Assembly: GCA_963806185.1 (NCBI GenBank)
Contig: CAWDXE010000006.1
Coordinates: forward strand, 96,001-160,000
Source: an uncultured candidate division Zixibacteria bacterium
Lineage (GTDB): Bacteria > Zixibacteria > MSB-5A5 > GN15 > FEB-12
DNA: 64,000 nucleotides
Direction of reading: 5' to 3'
In this document: piece by piece, positions 2,514 to 30,222 of the stretch
Numbering within the stretch: position 1 is the first letter of the stretch
How the letters are laid out: each line of letters begins with the position of its first letter
Translations under genes and position numbers: made by a program
The notes under the pieces: model-generated
The model's database searches: none
What the model saw: only the letters and a program-made list of their open reading frames with translations
Told to the model about the DNA's origin: nothing

Positions 2514-4025
2514 ATGACTGCCCAACAAGCTTATCAAGAACTCATTAAAGAAGTCAAAGAGATTTCCATCCTTGGGTCATGCGCCTCGGTCCTCGGATGG
2601 GACGAACGCACCTACATGCCCCGTCAGGGCGCCGAACACCGCTCCAACCAGCTCGGCCTGATCGCCCGGCTGAGCCACGAACGGTTCACCTCGTCAAAAA
2701 TCGGCGACCTGCTCGCCAAGAGCGAAAGCGACGGCCTCAAAGCGGGTGATACGCCCGAGGCCGCCAACCTGCGCGAAATCCGCCACCAGTACGACAAAGC
2801 CACCAAGCTGCCGTCCGATCTGGTCGAAGAAATGACCAAAACCACCTCGCTCGCCCAGGGTAAATGGGCTGAGGCCCGCGCCAAATCCGACTTCAAAGCC
2901 TTCCAGCCCTGGCTTGAGAAGATCGTCGCCATCGAACAGAAAGTCGCCGACGCCTACGGCTGGAAGGGCGAACGGTACAACGCCCTGCTCGACAACTATG
3001 AACCGGGCGCGACCGTCGACGACATCGCTTCCGTTTTCGAGAAACTCCGCGGCGAACTGGTGACGCTGCTGCAGAAAATCAAGAATGCGCCGAAAAAGCC
3101 CGATGTCAGCATCATTGAGCGCGAGTACAACATCGAGATGCAGCGTGTCTTTGGTGAATCGGTTGCCGAGGCGATGGGTTTTGACTTCGCCGCCGGCCGC
3201 TTGGACATCACCACCCACCCCTTCTGCTCCGGCTTCGGCCCCGGTGATACTCGCATCACCACGCGCTACAATCCGAGACGATTGAACGACGCCCTCTTTG
3301 GCATCATGCACGAGGCCGGCCACGCCCTGTACGAAATGGGGATACAAAAAGCGGAGTATTTCGGCGAGCCAATGGGCGAGGCTGCCTCGCTCGGCATCCA
3401 TGAATCGCAATCGCGCATGTGGGAAAACCAGGTCGGCCGCTCAAAAGAGTTCTGGGTCTACTTCCTCCCGCAGGCCAAGCGGATTTTCCGCCCGTCGCTC
3501 GACAACGTTTCACTCGATGCCTTCTACGGCGCGGTCAACTACGTGACTCCGTCGTACATCCGTGTCGAGGCCGACGAGGCCACCTACAACCTGCACATAC
3601 TCCTGCGTTTTGAAATCGAGCGCGCCATGTTGACCGGCGATCTCAAACCGGCCGACGTTGCGCATGAGTGGAACAGCCGCTTCGAGAAGTATTTCGGGCT
3701 TAAGGTCGACAACGACGCCAACGGCTGCTTGCAGGACGTTCACTGGTCGGCCGGCTATATCGGCTATTTCCCGACCTACACCTTGGGCAATCTGTATTCC
3801 GCGCAGTTCTTTGCGAAAGCCAGACAGGACATGCCGAATCTGGGCAAACAGTTCGAGCAGGGCAATTATGCCGAGTTGTTAGCCTGGCTGCGGAAGAACA
3901 TCCATATGCACGGCCAGCGTTACCGCGCCACCGATCTGGTAAAGCGAGTGACCGGCCAGCCCTTGTCAGCGCAGCCGTTGGTCGACTATATGAACAAGAA
4001 GTACGGCGAGATCTACGGCTTCTAG
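2514..4025 (+). CDS. Carboxypeptidase Taq family (M32) metallopeptidase
   Basis: HPF, HEAGH, HESQS, IRVEADE, QDVHW, GYFPTY motifs; AAGGAG before ATG 2514. Confidence 0.95.
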   Translation: MTAQQAYQELIKEVKEISILGSCASVLGWDERTYMPRQGAEHRSNQLGLIARLSHERFTSSKIGDLLAKSESDGLKAGDTPEAANLREIRHQYDKATKLPSDLVEEMTKTTSLAQGKWAEARAKSDFKAFQPWLEKIVAIEQKVADAYGWKGERYNALLDNYEPGATVDDIASVFEKLRGELVTLLQKIKNAPKKPDVSIIEREYNIEMQRVFGESVAEAMGFDFAAGRLDITTHPFCSGFGPGDTRITTRYNPRRLNDALFGIMHEAGHALYEMGIQKAEYFGEPMGEAASLGIHESQSRMWENQVGRSKEFWVYFLPQAKRIFRPSLDNVSLDAFYGAVNYVTPSYIRVEADEATYNLHILLRFEIERAMLTGDLKPADVAHEWNSRFEKYFGLKVDNDANGCLQDVHWSAGYIGYFPTYTLGNLYSAQFFAKARQDMPNLGKQFEQGNYAELLAWLRKNIHMHGQRYRATDLVKRVTGQPLSAQPLVDYMNKKYGEIYGF

Positions 4026-4048
4026 ACTTGTCGTCCGAAAGAGTATCG

Positions 4049-4646
4049 GTAGCCCACCGTCTTGCGGTGGGCTGAATGTCCCATCAGACTCCCGTGCCAA
4101 ACGCCTGTGCGGTCAGGCCCCCGTGCCTGACCGCACTCTTCTGAGTTGCTTCGGGTCCTGCGGCGATTCCTATCGCCGTGTGACCCGAAGCATCACCATA
4201 CCGGCCCTCACCCCAACCCTCTCCCTGAAGGGAGAGGGGGTATGAGAGGAAATCTGTAGGGCAAAAGTATTTTCAATTTATCAAGCGTTTTGCCAAGGAG
4301 GTGTTGCAACAGGCCCTTTACCTATTTCGAACGTGAGACCTGACGCCCCGCAATTCACCGACTACTCATTGCGAGAACCTCGCGGAGCCGAAGGGGCCGA
4401 CGTCAATCCTGAATCATTCTCGTGCTTCCGCGATCTCGACGATCTCCGCAATCTTACCTGACACGTCATTGCGAGCCGCTCCTTAGCGGCGTGGCAATCT
4501 TTCAGTTCGCTTCCTGTAAGTCGAAACCGCTTCGGTTTCGACCTGACCCACGGGCCTTCGCCATCGAGTAACGTCATGCTGAGCGGAGTCGAAGCATGAT
4601 CCGTATGCAAATCCTACCCTTGATCCCCGCCTTCACGGGTATGACA
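4049..4646. repeat. Intergenic mosaic of palindromic REP-like repeats from several families
   Basis: GTAGCCCACCG..CGGTGGGCT (4049); CGGTCAGGCCCCCGTGCCTGACCG (4110); CCCTCACCCCAACCCTCTCCC (4205); CGTCATTGCGAG..GCAATCT (4464); CGTCATGCTGAGCGGAGTCGAAGCATG (4572). Each type recurs elsewhere in the window. Confidence 0.85.
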
Positions 4647-4867
4647 ATTCTGTATGGTCAGCATTTCTTGCCTTGGGGCGGCATCGATATCCGGTAATGC
4701 CCTGCGCTCCCCCCTCCGATTGCCGCGCATCCCGACCCGGCCGGCCTTTGCGACGTCGTCCCCCAATTTCTCTTGCAATATGGATGCTATGTACCGATAT
4801 TATCCACGTGGCGGTCACGGCCACAACAACCAGATCAACGCTAAACCTCTGAACCGGGAGTATTTCA

Positions 4868-7543
4868 GTGGCTCTATCCAGTGGTGCCAAGCTAGGTCCC
4901 TACATCATCGAATCAACCGCCGGCGCCGGCGGCATGGGCGAAGTCTACAAAGCCAAAGACAGCCGACTTGATCGCACCGTTGCGATCAAGGTTCTCTCGG
5001 TGCAAGTGGCCGGCAATCAGGATCTCCGCCTCCGTTTCGAACGCGAGGCCAAGGCCATCTCAAGCCTCAACCACCCCAACATCTGCACCCTTTTCGACAT
5101 CGGTCATCAGGACGGTGTCGACTATCTGGTCATGGAGTATCTGGAAGGCGAAACGCTCGCCTCACGTCTCCTGCGTGGCCCGTTATCTGTCCCCGACTTG
5201 CTGAATATTGCCGTGCAGATTGCCGACGGCCTTGACAAGGCCCACCGCCAGGGACTGATCCACCGCGATCTCAAACCGGGCAACATCATGCTCACCAAGT
5301 CCGGCGCCAAACTTCTCGACTTCGGCCTGGCCAAACTGCAGGAATCAGGTGGACTCGTCCACGGTCAGAGTGGTATCACCCGCACCACCACGCCTCTCAC
5401 CGGAGAGGGCGCGATCATCGGCACCCTCCAGTATATGGCCCCCGAACAACTCGAAGGGAAAGAGGTGGATGCCCGCACCGACATCTTCGCCTTCGGCGCC
5501 ATTCTTTACGAAATGGCCACCGGCCGCCGCGCCTTTGACGGCGGCAGTCAGGCCAGCCTCATCGCCTCCATCATCAAGGAACAGCCGCGCGCTATCGCCG
5601 AGTTACAGCCCATGTCCCCTCCCATGCTTGAACGGGTCATCCGCCAGTGCCTGGAAAAGGATCCCGACCATCGCTGGCACACGGCCGGCGATCTCAAGCG
5701 ATCACTGCTCTGGATTAACGAAGGTGGCTCACAGGTCGGCGTGCCGTTGCAGGTCTCTGTTCGCCGCAAATCGCGAGAACGGATGCTCTGGGCCGCAACA
5801 GGTGTATTGGGATTGGCTGCACTCGCCCTGGGCGCGAAGATCTTGTTGCAGGCTAAGCCGGAGCTGAGGGTCGCCCGCTTCTCCATTACCCAGGAGCCTC
5901 GCTATTCCGGCACCACTTGGCCGATGATTTCACCAGACGGCAAGTACGTCGCCTTCCAGGCACAGGACAGCGCCAGAGTGTTTAAGATCTGGGTCCGTCC
6001 CATGAACTCACTCCAGGCGATTCCTCTGGAGGGTACTGATGGCGCCAATCGCCCCTTCTGGTCGCCCGACAGCAAGTTCCTGGCCTTTTTCGATAACCGC
6101 AATCAACTCCGACGAATCCCCGCCACCGGTGGGCCGACCCTTTTGATCTGCGAGGCGCCGCACGCCTCGGATGGTACATGGGGAAGTGACGGCATTATTA
6201 TCTTTGACGGCAACGCCGCCGATTCGCTCCGACAAGTCCCGGCCGCAGGCGGGCCGGTGACCCAGGCATCGTTCATCAACCGCGCGGTCGGCGAAACCGG
6301 TCACGCCTGGCCCTGGTTTCTCCCTGACGGCAAGCACTACTTGTTTAATACCTTTGCGTCCATCCCCGGCACCGGCCAGCAGTCGTACCTGATGTCCGGA
6401 ACTCTCGGATCCAGGGAGAGCAAGAAACTCGCGACAGTGGAATCACGCGTCGTCTATTCGACTGCCGGCTATATCCTCTATATGAAAGATCGCATCCTGG
6501 TAGCACAGCCGTTCAACGCTGATAAACAGGAAATCACCGGCGACCCGATACCCCTCACAAACGAGGTAACCAGTCTCGACGAGCGCGCTCTCTTCAGTGT
6601 TTCCAACGACGGTCAACTGCTGTACCAGCGCGGCACCGCGATAAGCGAGCGACGCATGGTCTGGGTCGACCGTACGGGCAAGGAGCTCTCCGAGGAAATG
6701 CCCCCGTCAGGTTTTGAAAACGTCGCTCTGTCTCCCGACGGCAAACGCATTGCCTATGAACTCACGAGCAACAACGGCAACCAGACCGACATCTGGGTCC
6801 GCGATCTCCAGCGCCAGATTTCTTCGCGTCTGACGTTCAACGAGGCAGCCGACGTCTGGCCGGTGTGGAGTGCCGACAATTCCCGGGTTTATTTTGGCTC
6901 CGACCGAAAGGACAATCTGGGCAAGTGGAGTATCTTCAGCCGACTAGCCAACGGTACTGGATCCGATGAAGAACTGCCGAGATCCGATTCGACTCCCTTC
7001 ATCACGCAAAGCGCCTATCCTGACGGTTCCGCACTCGTGGTCATGTCGGTGCCAATTACGCGCGTCTTCGATATCTGGAAACTCGAACTTCGTTCCGGCA
7101 AGATGGAACCGTTGCTGAATTCTGAATTCAGCGAGCGCTGGGCCTCCATCTCACCCAACAGTCAGTATATTGCCTATAGCAGTAACGAGTCCGGTCGGGC
7201 TCAGGTGTATATTCAACAACTCGGCGCCGGCGGCGGCAAATGGCAGATAACGTCTGTGAACACCCGCATGGCGCAATGGCGCGCTGACGGCCGGGAGTTG
7301 TATTGCGTGTCGGCGGATGGCAACCTGATGGCTACACCGATAAGTTATGAAGGCGGCCTGCAAATTGGTCAGCCGACCGTGCTGTTTCGAAAGCCATTCT
7401 ACTTTGACATCACCTACACGAATTCAAGCTATCAGGTCACGCGCGACGGTCAGCGCTTTCTCTGCGTGACACAGCCCGAGCAGAACTCCTCCGTTGAGCT
7501 GATACTCGTGCAAAACTGGGCCGAGGAACTCGTGGGCCGCTGA
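4868..7543 (+). CDS. Hanks-type Ser/Thr kinase with hydrophobic segment and C-terminal TolB/PD40-like beta-propeller repeats
   Basis: GAGGMGEVY, VAIK, HRDLKPGN, DFGLAK, YMAPEQ; repeated SPDG/PDG motifs. Confidence 0.93.
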   Translation: MALSSGAKLGPYIIESTAGAGGMGEVYKAKDSRLDRTVAIKVLSVQVAGNQDLRLRFEREAKAISSLNHPNICTLFDIGHQDGVDYLVMEYLEGETLASRLLRGPLSVPDLLNIAVQIADGLDKAHRQGLIHRDLKPGNIMLTKSGAKLLDFGLAKLQESGGLVHGQSGITRTTTPLTGEGAIIGTLQYMAPEQLEGKEVDARTDIFAFGAILYEMATGRRAFDGGSQASLIASIIKEQPRAIAELQPMSPPMLERVIRQCLEKDPDHRWHTAGDLKRSLLWINEGGSQVGVPLQVSVRRKSRERMLWAATGVLGLAALALGAKILLQAKPELRVARFSITQEPRYSGTTWPMISPDGKYVAFQAQDSARVFKIWVRPMNSLQAIPLEGTDGANRPFWSPDSKFLAFFDNRNQLRRIPATGGPTLLICEAPHASDGTWGSDGIIIFDGNAADSLRQVPAAGGPVTQASFINRAVGETGHAWPWFLPDGKHYLFNTFASIPGTGQQSYLMSGTLGSRESKKLATVESRVVYSTAGYILYMKDRILVAQPFNADKQEITGDPIPLTNEVTSLDERALFSVSNDGQLLYQRGTAISERRMVWVDRTGKELSEEMPPSGFENVALSPDGKRIAYELTSNNGNQTDIWVRDLQRQISSRLTFNEAADVWPVWSADNSRVYFGSDRKDNLGKWSIFSRLANGTGSDEELPRSDSTPFITQSAYPDGSALVVMSVPITRVFDIWKLELRSGKMEPLLNSEFSERWASISPNSQYIAYSSNESGRAQVYIQQLGAGGGKWQITSVNTRMAQWRADGRELYCVSADGNLMATPISYEGGLQIGQPTVLFRKPFYFDITYTNSSYQVTRDGQRFLCVTQPEQNSSVELILVQNWAEELVGR

Positions 7544-25203: not shown

Positions 25204-26533
25204 TCAGTGCATCGCTTTCTTGGGCAAATGGATGATCATGCGAGTTGACGAACCGGGACGACTGTCGACCGTCAGCTTGCCTCGCATTTCTTCAATGAGT
25301 CGTTTACTTAAGTACAGGCCCAGCCCGGAACCGGTTTGCTTGGTCGTATAGAACGGGGCAAAGATCCGCTTGGCTTCCTTCGCCGTCATGCCCGGCCCGT
25401 AGTCGATCACTACTATTTGTACTTCGTGCTGACGGTCGGTCACGTCCAGGCCCACTTTGATCGGCCGCTCCGCCGCCTGGCAAGCTTCCGCTCCGTTTAC
25501 CAGTAAATTCAATATAACCTGCCGCAACGCCCGGGGAAATCCCTCCATTGACAGCGCCGGTACCGGTGCTTCCTCCACCCACTGCGCCTGCTGGCCGGCG
25601 TACCGGGTGAGGAAGTGTTTCCGAATGGTGCTCACCATCTCCGCCAGATCATACGTTTCAGGCGTCTCGGTGGCAATCAGCGATTGCTCCGCTCGGGCAA
25701 AATTCAGATACCCGGTCACCAGCGCGTTAAGTCGGTCGGTCTCTTCAACGATATACTTCGCTTCCTCGGCCTGGTGCTTCTTGAAGAGGCGTTCGGCCGA
25801 CGCCCGGATGATGCCGAGCGGGTTCTTGACTTCATGCGCGACGACCGCCACCATCCGCCCCATGAACGAGTGCGTCTCGCCCATATACAATCGCTGTTCG
25901 ATCTGATTGAGGCGGCGCTGCAGGAGGAGGAATACCGCCCCAAGCATCAGCCCGCCCAGCATCGAGATCCCGGTCGCATACCAGAGGTTTTTTCGCAGGG
26001 CGGCCAGCGACGCGAAGTAGTCGACATTTGCTTCCACCCCCAGCACCGCCGCCACCGATCTATTCCGGTCGGTGATCGGTGCGAAGGCCGACTTCAGGAC
26101 GACCTCCCCCACCTGATACGATGGTGTGGCGATGGTCGCATGACTGGTGCCAAAGAACAGGGAGTCGATATATTTCCCGTTGAATGAGGCAAGAAAGTAC
26201 ACACTGTCGACTTCGACCTGCGTAGTGGCGAGGTAGTGAGAACCGTCGTCCAGAATGAACACCTCGGACAGCGAGTCCGACAACCGCAGCCGCTCCAGCC
26301 GACCGATGACCGAGGCGTACACCTCCAGATCATTGGCTCTGAGCTTGTCCAGCTCTTCCGTCTGGATACCGTCTGCTCCCACCTGCGCCAGCGCCGATAG
26401 ACCGCCGCGACAACTGGTTGTCGAGCATCACTTCGGTTTTCCGGTAGTAGAGCCACCAGGAGAGATTGACCAGGGCGATCAGGACGAGAGTAAAGACGGC
26501 GATGACAATCAGCCGGACGGAGGTAGTTCGCAT
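25204..26533 (-). CDS. Sensor histidine kinase (2 TM), one frameshift near 26400
   Basis: HEVKNPL, NLLVNG, DYGPG, FYTTK..GSGLGL; first TM in ORF 26330-26533 joins the main frame at LSRR/LSALAQVG. Confidence 0.9.
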
Positions 26534-26589
26534 GCCGCAAAGAAGCGGTTCTCAGTTCGGCTTGGCAACAAGAGTTGTTGGGGGGGATG

Positions 26590-26912
26590 TGCCGTCAGGC
26601 CCCCGTGCCTGACGGAATCCGTTGCGTCAGGTCCTGCGGCGATTCTTGTCGCCGTGTGACCTGACGCCTCACCCTACTCGCCCTCACCCCAACCCTCTCC
26701 CGGAGGGAGAGCAAGCAAGAGGGAATCTGTAGGGCAGCATCGATGCCCGCCGAGGGCGGGCAGATGCTGCCGGGGGGCCCATGAATTCCGAAAGATGGCA
26801 GCACCCGCTCGAAGACTCGCATCGGTGCTGCCCTACGTGATGGGTTCATTCCAATGGCCGGCGTACGTCTCGTGCGTCGGCGGGTGTGCCGTCAGGCCCC
26901 CGTGCCTGACGG
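26590..26912. repeat. REP-like palindrome mosaic
   Basis: Two GTCAGGCCCCCGTGCCTGAC copies, CCCTCACCCCAACCCTCTCCC (26681), GTAGGGCAGCATCG pair, GGCCGGCGTACGTCTCGTGCG (26855). Confidence 0.85.
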
Positions 26913-28556
26913 TGGAGGAATGGGCAGCGTGTCGGGCCGAACTACATGCTGCCAAAGCCAAGAATCAAACCATCTCACAATGTCACTACTGAAACGATGT
27001 GGATAAATGACTAAAAACAGTGGTACCCAATGAGGATGCTTCTTCAACATTGCAGGCACAGTAATTCCACCGCATTCCTCAGCCATTTCCTGCAATTCCT
27101 GCCAGTCCATGGTGTATGGCGGTATGATGGTCGAGTTGTACCCAGTCGGTGTTCGCCACAACAGATATTGCCATGATTCATTAGGGTCGACTCGATGAAG
27201 CATAAGGTACGTGTAGAGCGGCCATTGCAGCTTCAGCTCACGTTTCCAGTTCATTCTTACGGCAAGATGCAATAGAGCTTCAGGAGTATAAGCGCTACCT
27301 TCGAAATTCTCGCTGATCTTCCCGTCAGCCAATCCGAGTTGAGAGAGCACGACAGACTCGCCGCTATAGTAAGGGGACGCCAAAGGGCATTTTGACCCCG
27401 GTTTGTTCGACGTGATTACAGCATCAAGGACACTCATAATTATTTGTTCGGGAGCTGGTGTAGAGTCTACCGTGCGAAGATACCAATAAGCCGCAACATA
27501 CGACGAGACAGCGCCCTCCCCCCATAAAGACATTTCTCTCAGATGCGAGCGAAGGAACCTTTGTATCATTCCATCAATTTCTTCACTGCAATGTTCAAGT
27601 GATCTGTTCCAGATACCGAAAGCACTCAGAACACCAACCAGGAAGGTCACGCGCAATGTATAGAATGGCTGATCGGGGAGTGCATTGCCCTCCAATAAGT
27701 GATCTCTCTTTCCAATCTCTTCGATTAGATTTTCAAAAGACTCAAGTACATACTGCTCTACTAATCGAAATGTGGAAGTCCAGTACTTCTGGGGGAGTTG
27801 ATGTTGCTCAATGACCGCAGATATATAGGCCAAAAAGAACACCCACACTTGTATCTTGGCACAGTGGTTGTTCTTCTCCTCGTACGAGGCTGAAGCAACA
27901 GCTGTAATTAAGGCTGAACTAGCTATGGCGCGAAAGAAACTTGCTTTGGAGGGGCTTTTTTCCCTTTCATTGAGAAAGGGCATCGAGTAACTCAACAGCC
28001 GTTCGAACTTTTCAGGGGAAGGTTCATTATTTCCCTCCTCGAGGTAGAGTTCGCCCAATATTCGGAAATCGCGCAATTCGCTCGGAAGAAGCGACCGCGA
28101 TAGCGCCAGAGTCATCGCCAAGAGTTTTCCTCGGGAAATGAGCTCAACCTGTCGCTCGGGAAAGCCCTTGTCGCGAAGACCACTATTAAAATTATTAATA
28201 GAGACTTGTATTTCTTCCTCGATGTCTGCGTTTACAACTAGGTAAGACCGATGCCAGCGAGCGCTCGCGAGACCAGGGTAGTTCACCTTCAGCATCACAA
28301 GATCCAACAGTTGTGATTCTGCTTCCCTCCAATCGTTTCTCGAAAATCGCTTGTTACTCGTGCTCTTGAGTTGGTACGCATGAATCTCGCCATCTGGGCT
28401 GACGCTAATCACGTCCTTGCCCTCCTCGAGGCCGGTATGCCGCGTGGAGTGAACAATTTCGTGTCCCTCGTTGATGAGCATGGCGCAGAAGGGCAACTGG
28501 TAACTTCGCTCTGTCGCACTATCCAACCAATTTTCGAGAAGCCTCTCTATCATCAA
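26892..28556 (-). CDS. Protein with N-terminal Mrr-like PD-(D/E)xK nuclease domain and long helical C-terminal region
   Basis: ERSYQ..GKDVISV..HAYQLK fits the E..D..QxK pattern; AT-richer than host genes. Confidence 0.65.
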   Translation of the reverse strand: MMIERLLENWLDSATERSYQLPFCAMLINEGHEIVHSTRHTGLEEGKDVISVSPDGEIHAYQLKSTSNKRFSRNDWREAESQLLDLVMLKVNYPGLASARWHRSYLVVNADIEEEIQVSINNFNSGLRDKGFPERQVELISRGKLLAMTLALSRSLLPSELRDFRILGELYLEEGNNEPSPEKFERLLSYSMPFLNEREKSPSKASFFRAIASSALITAVASASYEEKNNHCAKIQVWVFFLAYISAVIEQHQLPQKYWTSTFRLVEQYVLESFENLIEEIGKRDHLLEGNALPDQPFYTLRVTFLVGVLSAFGIWNRSLEHCSEEIDGMIQRFLRSHLREMSLWGEGAVSSYVAAYWYLRTVDSTPAPEQIIMSVLDAVITSNKPGSKCPLASPYYSGESVVLSQLGLADGKISENFEGSAYTPEALLHLAVRMNWKRELKLQWPLYTYLMLHRVDPNESWQYLLWRTPTGYNSTIIPPYTMDWQELQEMAEECGGITVPAMLKKHPHWVPLFLVIYPHRFSSDIVRWFDSWLWQHVVRPDTLPIPPPSGTGA

Positions 28557-29113
28557 AGTCCCTTCGTTTTTTGGCTATAAGTGCCTCGAATTGCTTCTTA
28601 ATCTCCGGATCACTTTCAGACTCCACCATAATCTGCCTAAATCGTTCAGCCATTTGTGGCGCTGCTACTATTGTCGGCAGCTTGATTTTCCCGCTGCGAT
28701 CGAAGTCCATTTCGACATTCTCTAGCATATCGAGGAAATCGCGAGGTCCAAAACTCTCCCGACGAAATTGAAGGTCCTGCCCTTCTCATCGAGAAACTGC
28801 GAAATAGAAGAGAAGAAAGTGCGCTGCTGTTGTTCCGCTACCTGTTTCGCAATACTGTCGACAAGCTCCATCAACTTGGGTTGACCTCCTGCAATCAACT
28901 CGGACGGAGCGAAGGAGATTTGTCCGGACAATTTCATTAATGTGGGCTTTCATCGACTGCGCCGTCTGCCCGGATGACGCGCATCTTGTTCGCTTCAAAT
29001 GCCTTCGATTCAGAGATGCCCAAAACTGATATGAATGTTCTCGCCCGCGTATAGATGAGCTTGTCGATGGAGCGGAGGACGACTTCCTTTGACTTGGGGT
29101 AGTCTGGCAACAC
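28519..29113 (-). CDS. Hypothetical protein of about 195 aa split by about 3 frameshifts, overlapping the nuclease start
   Basis: GTG 29113 MLPDYPKSKEVV.. / VIRADGAVDESP / MKLSGQISF..RTFF.. / FLDMLENVEMDFD..REASRKLVG*. Confidence 0.6.
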
Positions 29114-29122
29114 GGCTTTACC

Positions 29123-29956
29123 CTACATCCTCTCCACGCACCCCGCGATCAGGTCACGAATTTCGGTTCGGTGCGCGAGGCTGTCCCGATCACATCCTGC
29201 AACGAGCACGGATGCATGTTGTCGGCCAGCCCCATATCGGTAATAATCGAGAACGCCAGATATCTTGCTCCTCTGATGATGCGCCGCGATCACCTCCGGC
29301 ACCGTCGACATCCCGACCGCGTCGCCGCCGATCGTCCGGAAAAACCGGTACTCCGCCGCCGTCTCCAGCGTCGGGCCGGTCAGCCCCACATACACGCCGG
29401 TCTGCAAGCGGCAAGTTTCTGCTCCAGCGCCACCTGCTTGGCGATCTCCTGATACTTGTGGTTGTAGACCTCGTACATGTCGGGGAAACGGTCGCCCCAC
29501 TTGTCGTCGTTCGGGCCGATCAGCGGATTGCCGGGAAAGAAATTGATGTGGTCCTTGATCAGCATGACGTCGCCCGCCTTGAAATTCGGGTTCATCCCGC
29601 CGGCGGCGTTGGACACAATCAGCGTCTCCATGCCGAGCATCTTCATCACCCGCACCGGAAACGCGATCTGCTGGAACGAATACCCCTCATAATAGTGGAA
29701 CCGCCCCTGCATGCAGACCACCGGTTTCCCCTTCAGGTGGCCGAACAAGAGCCGTCCGGCGTGCGACTCGACTGTCGACACCGGGAAATGCGGAATCTTG
29801 TCGTACGACACCGTGCCGGTCATCTGGATACCGTCGACCAGCGACCCGAGCCCGGTGCCGAGGATGATGCCGATCTGCGGTTTGAGTTTGATCTGCGATT
29901 GAATGTACGCTGGTGGCTTCGCCAAGCTGTTTGTGAATTTCTGCCCACGTCTGCAT
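29123..29956 (-). CDS. punA: Purine nucleoside phosphorylase (trimeric family), several frameshifts
   Basis: [50 protein letters not shown] across three frames. Confidence 0.9.
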
Positions 29957-30050
29957 GTCTGTCTCCATTTGGGTATGTGTAATTATGTTTGTCGTTTACT
30001 CCTACGCTCACCAGTAAATGGTGGGGCACGGGAACTATGCGCCTCACCGG

Positions 30051-30222
30051 CCCTCACCCCAACCCTCTCCCAGAGGGGAGGGGGAGGAAGATGCGCTCGT
30101 GGCGCACGGGACGTACGCCACGCACGGAATGCACTCCGCCCACCAATCATGTTCGGCGTTTGCCGTGGCCGGCGTACGTCTCGTGCGCCGGCTTGTAAGT
30201 CAGGCTCCCTGCGAGCCTGACG
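30051..30222. repeat. REP-like palindrome cluster
   Basis: CCCTCACCCCAACCCTCTCCC..GGGAGGGG; two inverted GGCGTACGTC(T/C)CGTGCGCC copies; GTCAGGCTCCCTGCGAGCCTGAC. Confidence 0.8.

Follow-up and report, generated by a model that had tools for sequence, protein, structure and literature searches.

A gene for a predicted capsid-fold protein overlapping a predicted nuclease gene in a Zixibacteria genome: a candidate anti-phage pair

What does a small protein predicted to resemble part of a viral capsid do beside a predicted nuclease, encoded by two overlapping genes amid the housekeeping genes of a Zixibacteria bacterium? The pair lies in a window of 64,000 nucleotides, the whole stretch of DNA analysed here, and an original prediction made from its letters had read it as a candidate defence system in which a small protein, possibly a truncated capsid mimic or sensor, is coupled to an Mrr-like nuclease. 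We refer to the small gene as A and the large one as B. The reading that we prefer, and hold at a little less than even confidence, is that B is an anti-phage nuclease switched on via A acting as a domesticated capsid decoy; both the trigger and the defensive role are inferred.

Gene arrangement and assembly quality

Gene B (26892..28553, minus strand) encodes 553 amino acids comprising an N-terminal PD-(D/E)xK nuclease domain and a helical C-terminal domain. Its reading frame is open from 26892 to 28556 and homologs begin at the ATG at 28553, so the large open gene previously described is present with 553 rather than 554 residues. Gene A (28519..29113, minus strand), for a protein of about 198 residues with a predicted truncated HK97 (capsid/encapsulin) fold, was delineated with a profile of 36 intact homologs and falls into three frame pieces matching profile positions 2–58, 56–123, and 110–198. 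It starts at the GTG at 29113, 9 nt downstream of the purine nucleoside phosphorylase (PNP) stop. The frameshifts reported earlier are present but number two instead of about three: one at approximately 28944..28950 in an A/C base run and one at approximately 28758..28760 in a G run (both minus strand). Adding one base per break to the 595 nt yields 198 codons and a stop, which matches the family length and slightly exceeds the earlier estimate of about 195 codons. All four sequence segments quoted in the original prediction are found in the translations.

This assembly is indel-rich. The rpoB gene, whole in both of two relatives, is split here into 11 pieces, and the PNP gene (29123..29943, minus strand; PF01048, and tblastn with relatives), a host gene directly upstream of and outside the pair, carries two compensating frame changes and is whole in all seven relatives examined by tblastn. 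Because of these two cases, the breaks in gene A are probably sequencing indels; relatives carry an intact gene A of about 198 residues. The frameshifted copy in the window could nonetheless be a real pseudogene.

A and B share a dual-coding overlap (28519..28553, minus strand) in which the conserved C-terminal tail of A and the first 12 codons of B are read from the same bases; the overlap proposed earlier thus exists, with 35 nt instead of 38. An identical overlap and NTG start occur in 40/40 loci having the junction. Purine-rich sequence mostly precedes this start, and upstream of it stops often close the B frame; on these grounds, fusion of A and B by programmed frameshifting was rejected.

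The island holding the pair is AT-richer, as had been claimed, with a GC content of 48.4% compared to 56.4% genome-wide. Downstream of B lies a REP-like palindromic repeat cluster (26582..26912, unstranded; repeat families D1–D3, inverted repeats I2–I4) into which the last codons of B extend, and three of the cluster's motifs have 10, 3, and 9 exact copies in the genome. The minus strand between 26500 and 30300 showed no sigma-70-like promoter, and our guess is that the pair is transcribed by read-through from the PNP operon.

Protein B, a predicted nuclease

The N-terminal domain of B (residues 1–156; 28086..28553, minus strand), defined by fold and conservation, contains E15, H39, E43, D47, Q61, and K63, conserved in 95–96 of 96 homologs, and the EEGKD...YQLK pattern quoted previously is present in it (E43, G45, K46, D47, Q61, K63). 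It has a restriction-endonuclease alpha/beta core, aligning with FokI at Z 10.9 (141 aligned residues, rmsd 3.8), AF1548 at Z 10.5, BspD6I at Z 10.2, and MspJI at Z 9.5, and with the Avs4 nuclease domain at Z 7.5, while Foldseek places MspJI top for B (E 0.009). The conserved catalytic D and QxK are retained almost without exception (E15 and D47 in 95/96 homologs each, Q61 and K63 in 96/96). The Mrr-like PD-(D/E)xK assignment therefore holds on the FokI match and the Q61/K63 conservation, and B is predicted to be a PD-(D/E)xK nuclease with a full set of active-site residues. PF04471 is below detection in 33/33 B homologs with Pfam, and is carried by 12% of one ESM Atlas cluster.

Beyond residue 156 the B model is all-helical except for short strands. 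The structure matches of this C-terminal domain (about residues 157–540; 26934..28085, minus strand) are weak, to helical repeats (designed ones, Z at most 10.2) and to alpha/alpha barrels (an epimerase barrel, Z 8.7), values below the bar for helical folds. Searches with Pfam, PADLOC, and NCBIfam revealed no P-loop STAND NTPase in B; no SRA or DNA-recognition domain was detected in it, and the operon has no cognate methyltransferase.

Protein A, a predicted truncated capsid fold

The model of an A homolog (pLDDT 86) consists of a helix, a hairpin, an extended strand, a 34-residue helix, and an alpha/beta part, and its last 30 residues form one helix with the conserved tail at the end. When this model was exhaustively aligned to 48,161 structure chains, ranks 1–26 were all encapsulins or phage capsids, the two best being encapsulins; the best Z of 6.7 (150 aligned residues, rmsd 4.0), compared to 4.6 for the first non-HK97 row, falls within the range which the aligner calls common. 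The HK97-fold shells compared were the Family 1 encapsulins of P. furiosus (2e0z), D. quercicolus (9i8e), and T. maritima (7k5w), and the phage capsids HK97 (1ohg) and 80alpha (6b0x), to which 135–159 residues in the approximate model range 1–177 align at Z 4.6–6.7. The fold core, namely E-loop hairpin, P-domain with spine helix, and A-domain, is recognisable at these modest Z values for the N-terminal two thirds only. The C-terminal A-domain and P-domain strands of the complete fold are absent and the alignments mostly end near residue 200 of 265–310. A, unlike these shells, is only 198 residues long, spans no more of the fold than its first two thirds (12–209 of 278 in 9i8e, for example), and ends in a long helix and conserved tail. 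We thus predict from the model that A represents the N-terminal two thirds of an HK97 fold, in agreement with the original suggestion of a truncated HK97-like protein.

Other searches supplied weak leads. PHROGs lists a major head protein top for A (2/36 members, E 0.005), BFVD yields T7 gp10B (E 0.084) and P22 coat (TM 0.48), and ESM Atlas features point to capsid clusters at 0.81; the ESM Atlas search also matched a viral YonB family (TM 0.61), the identity of which was not found in the literature searched. Foldseek against the PDB placed no capsid above noise for A (best capsid rows at E 7), and no link between A and capsids was seen by sequence in Pfam (36 members) or the PDB, including no capsid or encapsulin family of the PF04454 or PF05065 type at E 0.1 among the families listed for the 36 members. 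No longer fusion form of A (351–2000 residues) occurs among 7,995 candidates, which is weak evidence. A prophage capsid remnant was considered and rejected on the lack of head genes among the neighbours scanned, the fixed length of A, and its fixed partner.

Predicted A–B complex

A 1:1 complex of A and B is predicted with a score of 0.72 (0.72, 0.73, 0.69) compared to 0.00 for the best of three controls, judged against a mark that 116/157 solved pairs and 2/215 mismatched pairs reach. Contact agreement between runs is at least 92% and partner pLDDT at least 80. In the model, A binds B through a hairpin at the E-loop position (A residues 35–51) and through its conserved tail (190–198), with the closest pairs of invariant residues being A G42 with B G471, and A L196/V197 with B W444/W484. 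The predicted A-binding patch of B comprises about residues 411–487 including W444, G471, and W484 (27093..27323, minus strand; mapped from homolog L018). Taken as a whole, the interface shows no higher conservation than the remainder of the two proteins (p 0.26 and 0.09). Because the contacts lie at B residues 388–519, and not at the first 12, the idea that the 35-nt overlap gave rise to the predicted complex artificially was rejected.

A is modelled without any contact to the nuclease domain of B, and its long spine helix and partial A-domain are left free. The coupling of A to the nuclease that was originally proposed is hence supported by the predicted complex, while its gating in the sense of direct control over the active site is not, since the model shows no contact there.

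Linkage and distribution

The linkage between homologs of the two genes is near-absolute. A is upstream of B in 40/41 B loci, two of those 40 being cut by contig ends, and B is directly downstream in all nine loci found with the A profile, eight of which are outside the 41. Across 32 loci, and with the overlap left out, the pairwise identities of A are correlated with those of B (Spearman 0.55), a measure of congruence which shared descent alone would also yield. The tree of A intermingles phyla. The pair was detected in 5/285 genomes of its own phylum, in none of 107 others of its own family, and in 5/401 and 1/400 genomes of two other samples. It is rare and patchy, and travels together across phyla.

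The A family is large, with 2,464 clusters at 50% identity, yet has no name; lengths in the best 150 of these clusters are about 196–199 residues. Natural half-losses occur in both directions: a whole A accompanies a broken B in 3/41 loci (L008, L039, L041), and an IS21-like element at one locus (L012) removes A and leaves B whole. One query for A had no match in plasmids or phages (phage set of 50,697 records); one viral contig was matched, in which A sits right after a KAP-NTPase/TatD operon of defence type. Searched by itself with a single-sequence pattern, B gave no match in viral contigs.

Genomic context

Neighbours of the homologs include type IIG and type I restriction-modification (RM) systems, CBASS, Pycsar, SIR2-Argonaute, and Cas10, although at many loci, as at the one in the window, no such neighbour is present. 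Strict PADLOC matches were obtained for 22/218 neighbours compared to 3/124 control genes (p 0.009), by a rule set post hoc and with control genes drawn from two other genomes. The difference is not significant per locus (15/40 vs 3/20, p 0.08) and disappears when Poribacteria are removed (7/29 vs 3/20, p 0.5). Enrichment in defence islands is thus seen per gene but not per locus without Poribacteria, and is moderate and driven by lineage. The window itself is not a defence island, as the neighbours of the pair are housekeeping genes (PNP, a two-component pair, methyltransferases, NUDIX, and glyoxalase). A Pfam scan at E 1e-9 of 103 neighbours of the homologs and 13 neighbours in the window detected no portal, terminase, protease, or scaffold family, nor was a cargo family seen among the 103.

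In line with the original statement, the pair matched no named system in the libraries searched: PADLOC-DB 2.0.0 (2023) gives no family for B at E 1 and matches 0/36 A members at E 0.001, Pfam and NCBIfam have no family for the pair, and the PDB by sequence returned nothing usable. No description of the pair was found in the literature searched. It is likely an undescribed anti-phage system.

Comparison with known systems

The 198-residue A is not the full-length shell protein of encapsulin Families 1–3, and differs from prophage major capsid proteins in having no head module among the neighbours scanned. Family 4 (A-domain) encapsulins are described as truncated HK97 folds found within conserved operons of two components, alongside enzymes, being PF08967 proteins of ~100 residues with the A-domain only, found in Euryarchaeota and Bacteroidetes and encoded downstream of metabolic enzymes (PMC8346489). 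A, in contrast, has 198 residues, retains the hairpin and spine helix, and is encoded upstream of a nuclease; PF08967 has no match in any of the 36 A members. The nuclease domain of B shares fold and D...QxK motif with Mrr/MspJI/FokI-type endonucleases, from which B is set apart by having no detected SRA or DNA-recognition domain or operon methyltransferase, and by PF04471 below detection.

Sensing of capsids by nuclease-bearing defences has precedent. Avs8A (PD-lambda-4A) is an Mrr-family nuclease triggered by an HK97-fold capsid protein (PMC12236752), and capsid protein induces an Avs7 tetramer (PMC13581612). Avs proteins are large NTPases of the STAND/P-loop kind, whose TPR-type sensor wraps around the capsid protein of the phage, whereas B has no NTPase domain and has its own capsid-fold partner. 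CapRel(SJ46), Lit, and Tai are likewise keyed to virion structural proteins, but read short capsid motifs or block tails, and none is reported with an HK97-fold subunit in the sources drawn on here.

Proposed mechanism and alternatives

We posit, as a possibility that falls somewhat below an even balance, that a phage capsid protein was domesticated, shortened to two thirds, and joined to a nuclease, and that phage head assembly recruits this decoy and thereby assembles the active enzyme. A would be held on the C-terminal domain of B by its hairpin and tail with the capsid-type surfaces free, as predicted in the model, and, lacking the C-terminal third, would be unable to form a closed shell alone. 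While a tailed phage assembles its head, the free surfaces of A may bind its major capsid subunits or scaffold, and this would gather several A–B units so that their FokI/Mrr-type domains pair up; the paired domains would then cut phage and host DNA and abort the infection. In this way the shell protein of the pathogen itself would have been turned into a bacterial 'integrated decoy'.

In type II toxin-antitoxin operons the small gene typically comes first and the two genes overlap in translation, and the E-loop is the element contacting neighbours in HK97-type capsids. The pair has this layout, a two-gene operon with the small gene first and a predicted protein–protein complex, and A is modelled to bind B through a hairpin at just that capsid contact position, which together with the three loci having a broken B and whole A fits a model in which A silences B until its E-loop is pulled into a growing shell, or until A is removed by prohead protease or host shut-off, leaving free B to cut DNA. 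We regard this release as unlikely, as the modelled A makes no contact with the nuclease domain and as B persists whole at L012 after loss of A, the latter being weak evidence because the IS21-like element also removes the ribosome-binding site of B. To a similar degree we doubt a version of the anti-phage nuclease in which the capsid fold is no more than a structural relic: A would be an accessory or folding partner, and the helical domain of B would read another trigger, be it modified DNA, the ends of DNA, or some different phage protein. Few of the invariant residues of A fall on the spine helix, nearly all being found at the N-terminus, in the tail, or where A meets B, and invariant residues of B outside the interface (N229, R301, W344-G-E346, P518/R520) could make a second binding site; a variable exposed surface is however also expected of a phage-facing bait, and the length and entire truncated fold of A are kept over the 2,464 clusters (lengths from the best 150), beyond what a tail-and-hairpin adaptor needs.

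The pair may not serve defence at all, being instead a selfish module that works by addiction, or a small compartment of encapsulin type in which a nuclease needed for some cellular task is stored or controlled. The encapsulin matches of A, the many loci without defence neighbours, and the operons of truncated HK97 folds with enzymes in Family 4 are all in line with this, yet the very patchy spread across phyla and repeated siting beside RM, CBASS, Pycsar, and Argonaute genes speak against it, as does the modelled position of B (540 residues) at the E-loop and not in the inner N-terminal helix pocket described for encapsulin cargo (PMC8346489), and we consider it improbable. Least probable, by our estimate, is that A enters phage procapsids and stalls or deforms them while B, tethered to it, cuts DNA where packaging takes place and the cell survives. 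Tail-assembly inhibition by Tai is a precedent for assembly interference (PMC11364771), and A would act as a chain terminator, since the fold's C-terminal third is missing from it, but A was never found without B (9/9), suggesting no benefit from A alone.

To our knowledge, the receptors of known capsid-sensing defences (Avs7/8/10, CapRel, Lit) are unrelated to capsids. Should the decoy reading be true, the pair would add a third cellular use of the HK97 viral fold to those in encapsulins and in gene transfer agents, and would directly parallel decoy-based immunity on the bacterial side. It would embody a new sensing principle with self-assembly as the detector, broad over tailed phages and hard to escape, and defence proteins with a capsid fold possibly form a wider class, of which this would be the member best defined. 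The decoy idea is cheap to test because the genes total 2.2 kb, the predicted interface gives exact residues, and intact copies are carried by cultured, non-pathogenic strains including Massilia (L013), Luteimonas (L027), and Algoriphagus (L016).

Linkage and distribution of the gene pair

The small gene A (GTG at 29113 to stop at 28519, minus strand) and gene B, which encodes a predicted nuclease (open frame 26892–28556, minus strand), constitute a real, conserved and unnamed two-protein module in which, according to structure models, a capsid-derived subunit would bind the nuclease. Among 7,999 candidates scored, 75 were B homologs of about 540 aa (29–40% identity), and a genome scan placed B at 41 loci in about ten phyla by record title. 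The directly upstream gene has the same tail at 40 of these loci (two of the 40 cut by contig ends), all 40 sharing an NTG start and an A/B overlap of 35 nt rather than the 38 nt originally noted. The exception, L012 (1–540), carries a transposase, which we read as probably IS21-like, inserted exactly at the B start codon, with gene A removed and the B frame whole. In the reverse direction, the A profile recovered nine loci outside the window genome (one of the nine duplicating L002), comprising one viral contig, four genomes of the same phylum and four of another phylum, and B directly follows A in all nine. The expectation that homologs always co-occur is thereby largely borne out from both sides. 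B is broken at 3 of the 41 loci (L008, L039 and L041).

At the 90% level, 697 of 4,905 candidate proteins matched the A profile, and at the level of 50% identity there were 2,464 matching representatives; of the matches listed, almost all are 194–200 aa long. Prevalence is low and spread is patchy: the pair occurs in 5/285 genomes of its own phylum, counting the window genome, in 0/107 other genomes of its own family, and in 5/401 and 1/400 genomes of two further samples, each counting the seed genome. Well-supported clades in the tree of A mix members of different phyla. Pairwise identities of A and B are correlated (Spearman 0.55, 32 loci; 0.55 also with one Poribacteria member kept), which shows co-inheritance, not co-evolution by contact.

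Predicted protein structures

The model of B is confident (pLDDT 91, pTM 0.79), and its residues 1–156 match restriction-endonuclease folds, including FokI (Z 10.9, 141 aligned, rmsd 3.8), AF1548 (Z 10.5), BspD6I (Z 10.2), MspJI (Z 9.5) and Avs4 (Z 7.5); MspJI is also the top Foldseek match (E 0.009). E15, D47, Q61 and K63 are present in 95–96 of 96 sequences, alongside invariant H39, E43 and G45. These matches and the near-invariant D47, Q61 and K63 support the Mrr-like PD-(D/E)xK domain originally predicted. Beyond residue 156 the model is helical; helical repeats and alpha/alpha barrels are its sole matches, with scores that the aligner rates as common. No Pfam, PADLOC or NCBIfam family matched B, nor did any family match its homologs (0/33) in a follow-up family scan.

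Protein A was modelled from its intact homolog at L018 (pLDDT 86). After an N-terminal helix, the chain forms a hairpin (44–58), an extended segment and a helix of 34 residues; a small alpha/beta part follows, and a long helix closes the C-terminus. Compared with 48,161 PDB representatives, ranks 1–26 were all encapsulins or phage capsid proteins, led by the encapsulins of P. furiosus (Z 6.7, 150 aligned, rmsd 4.0) and D. quercicolus (Z 6.4), and the first unrelated row stood at Z 4.6. The case for an HK97-type fold is this unbroken run of one fold, the Z values alone being modest. The proposed capsid likeness of A is thus upheld in the fold comparison, but neither Foldseek against the PDB nor sequence searches with A found a capsid link. 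Weak leads in agreement come from BFVD (T7 gp10B and P22 coat), from PHROGs, where 2/36 A members match a major head family, and from the ESM Atlas, with capsid clusters at 0.81. Since the alignments extend over roughly the first 200 residues of targets that are 265–310 residues long, A would lack the C-terminal third of the fold; from element order and aligned ranges, its hairpin may correspond to the E-loop and its long helix to the spine helix. Look-alikes in the ESM Atlas include an Actinomycetota cluster (182 members, TM 0.78) and a mixed bacterial/archaeal cluster (66 members, TM 0.77). The nearest viral model there, a cluster labelled YonB (149 members, TM 0.61), may point to the capsid lineage from which A originated.

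The predicted complex

Folded with alignments, the L018 pair scored 0.72 (runs 0.72, 0.73 and 0.69) against 0.00 for the best control, passing a mark that 116 of 157 solved complexes attain, as do 2 of 215 mismatched pairs; with self-made alignments these counts apply only roughly. At least 92% of contacts agreed between runs, with partner pLDDT of at least 80. Sequence relatives of the two proteins are absent from the PDB, so the pass is unlikely to reflect memorised structures. The suggested complex prediction favours binding. The predicted interface sets A 35–51 and 190–198 against B 388–487 and 519, its best-placed contacts pairing invariant residues (A G42 with B G471; A L196/V197 with B W444/W484). 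B residues 1–156 lie outside it, so A would leave the active site unblocked; an artefact of the 35-nt overlap was rejected for the same reason. Taken overall, interface residues show no higher conservation than the remaining ones (p 0.26 for B, 0.09 for A). This adds no support, but would be expected were the contact largely backbone pairing between strands. A residues 1–9, also outside the interface, include invariant L2 and P3 and more than 90% conserved D4 and K9 (alignment A2), apparently a second functional surface.

Genomic context and neighbouring defence genes

Of the 428 ORFs called around the 41 loci, the scan took in 218 that lie within 4.5 kb and encode at least 140 aa, after removal of most duplicate clusters; 124 genes from 20 evenly spaced windows of two genomes served as control. 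PADLOC matches at E 1e-8 were more frequent among neighbours (38/218 vs 11/124, p 0.036), as they were under a strict, hand-counted rule adopted later (coverage of 60% or more of the profile and a score of 80 bits or more; 22/218 vs 3/124, p 0.009). The anticipated defence-island enrichment therefore holds per gene but not per locus (strict rule, 15/40 vs 3/20, p 0.08; 7/29, p 0.5, once Poribacteria-type loci are removed). Among the genes nearby are type IIG and type I RM, CBASS, Pycsar, SIR2-Argonaute, ApeA-like, Abi_alpha and GmrSD genes, as well as integrases and transposases; in 103 neighbours, families for portal, terminase or encapsulin cargo were absent. One control window (L064, 797–3280) holds a full-length TIR-NLR match of 571 bits.

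On viral contig L042 (3213–12644, IMG/VR), a four-gene operon running from a KAP-NTPase to a TatD gene, which we take to be Qat, directly precedes the pair, and two unknown genes follow; this is a defence cluster on a probable prophage. In five Poribacteria loci (L003, L011, L017, L025 and L038; about 2550–7400) a type IIG restriction-modification gene of about 1600 aa directly precedes the pair and the downstream slot varies (Argonaute-SIR2, ApeA-like, Pycsar, purL), an arrangement that marks a defence hotspot.

Proposed mode of action and known systems

We consider a defence role likely, and the pair is probably anti-phage; within that reading and its variants, triggering through the capsid fold is somewhat favoured. 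FokI, MspJI and Avs nucleases must pair or tetramerise for cutting, and the hairpin at the E-loop position is the element by which capsid subunits contact one another. We posit that A–B units would cluster, allowing B nuclease domains to pair and cut, because these related nucleases have that need, because A would leave the active site free, and because its spine helix and partial A-domain would stay exposed. The main rival is that A gives up its hold on B, since the hairpin holding B is the very element that capsid subunits use on each other. Clustering remains preferred. For Avs nucleases, the need to pair or tetramerise is supported by work on Avs7 (PMC13581612).

Avs8A is an Mrr-type nuclease switched on by an HK97-fold capsid protein (PMC12236752), as proposed for the pair, which is however not an Avs because it lacks a STAND NTPase. 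Family 4 encapsulins share the truncated fold and two-gene layout, but the pair fails their length and domain definition (PMC8346489). No description of such a pair was found in the literature searched, including keyword-matched passages in two reviews and an HK97 evolution paper (PMC8987985, PMC13434031, PMC13669383), with subscription papers sparsely covered; the family may appear without a name in the supplements of large prediction catalogues. As far as these searches reach, the architecture is categorically new.

The copy in the window

Homologs start at the ATG at 28553, giving B 553 aa instead of the 554 originally noted, and A starts 9 nt, not 10, after the stop of the purine nucleoside phosphorylase gene (PNP; 29123–29943, minus strand). 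Gene A is indeed in pieces, but its three frame pieces match positions 2–58, 56–123 and 110–198 of the intact-homolog profile, and there are therefore two breaks, not about three, both within short base runs. The assembly has many indel errors: rpoB (G000:C4:315388-319144) is in 11 pieces and whole in 2/2 relatives, and PNP has two compensating frame changes and is whole in 7/7 relatives examined. Other split genes of this genome are therefore suspect, and gene A is probably intact. The N-terminal membrane part of a histidine kinase (25204–26533) lies in a separate frame.

The island is AT-richer, as originally noted (48.4% GC vs 56.4% for the genome), and the pair is a lone insert, with PNP on one side and a REP-like repeat cluster, then a two-component operon, on the other. 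REP-like palindromic repeats lie on both sides of the region (26582–26912 and 30050–30192), three motifs having 10, 3 and 9 exact genome copies, and the last codons of B (low pLDDT) extend into one such repeat.
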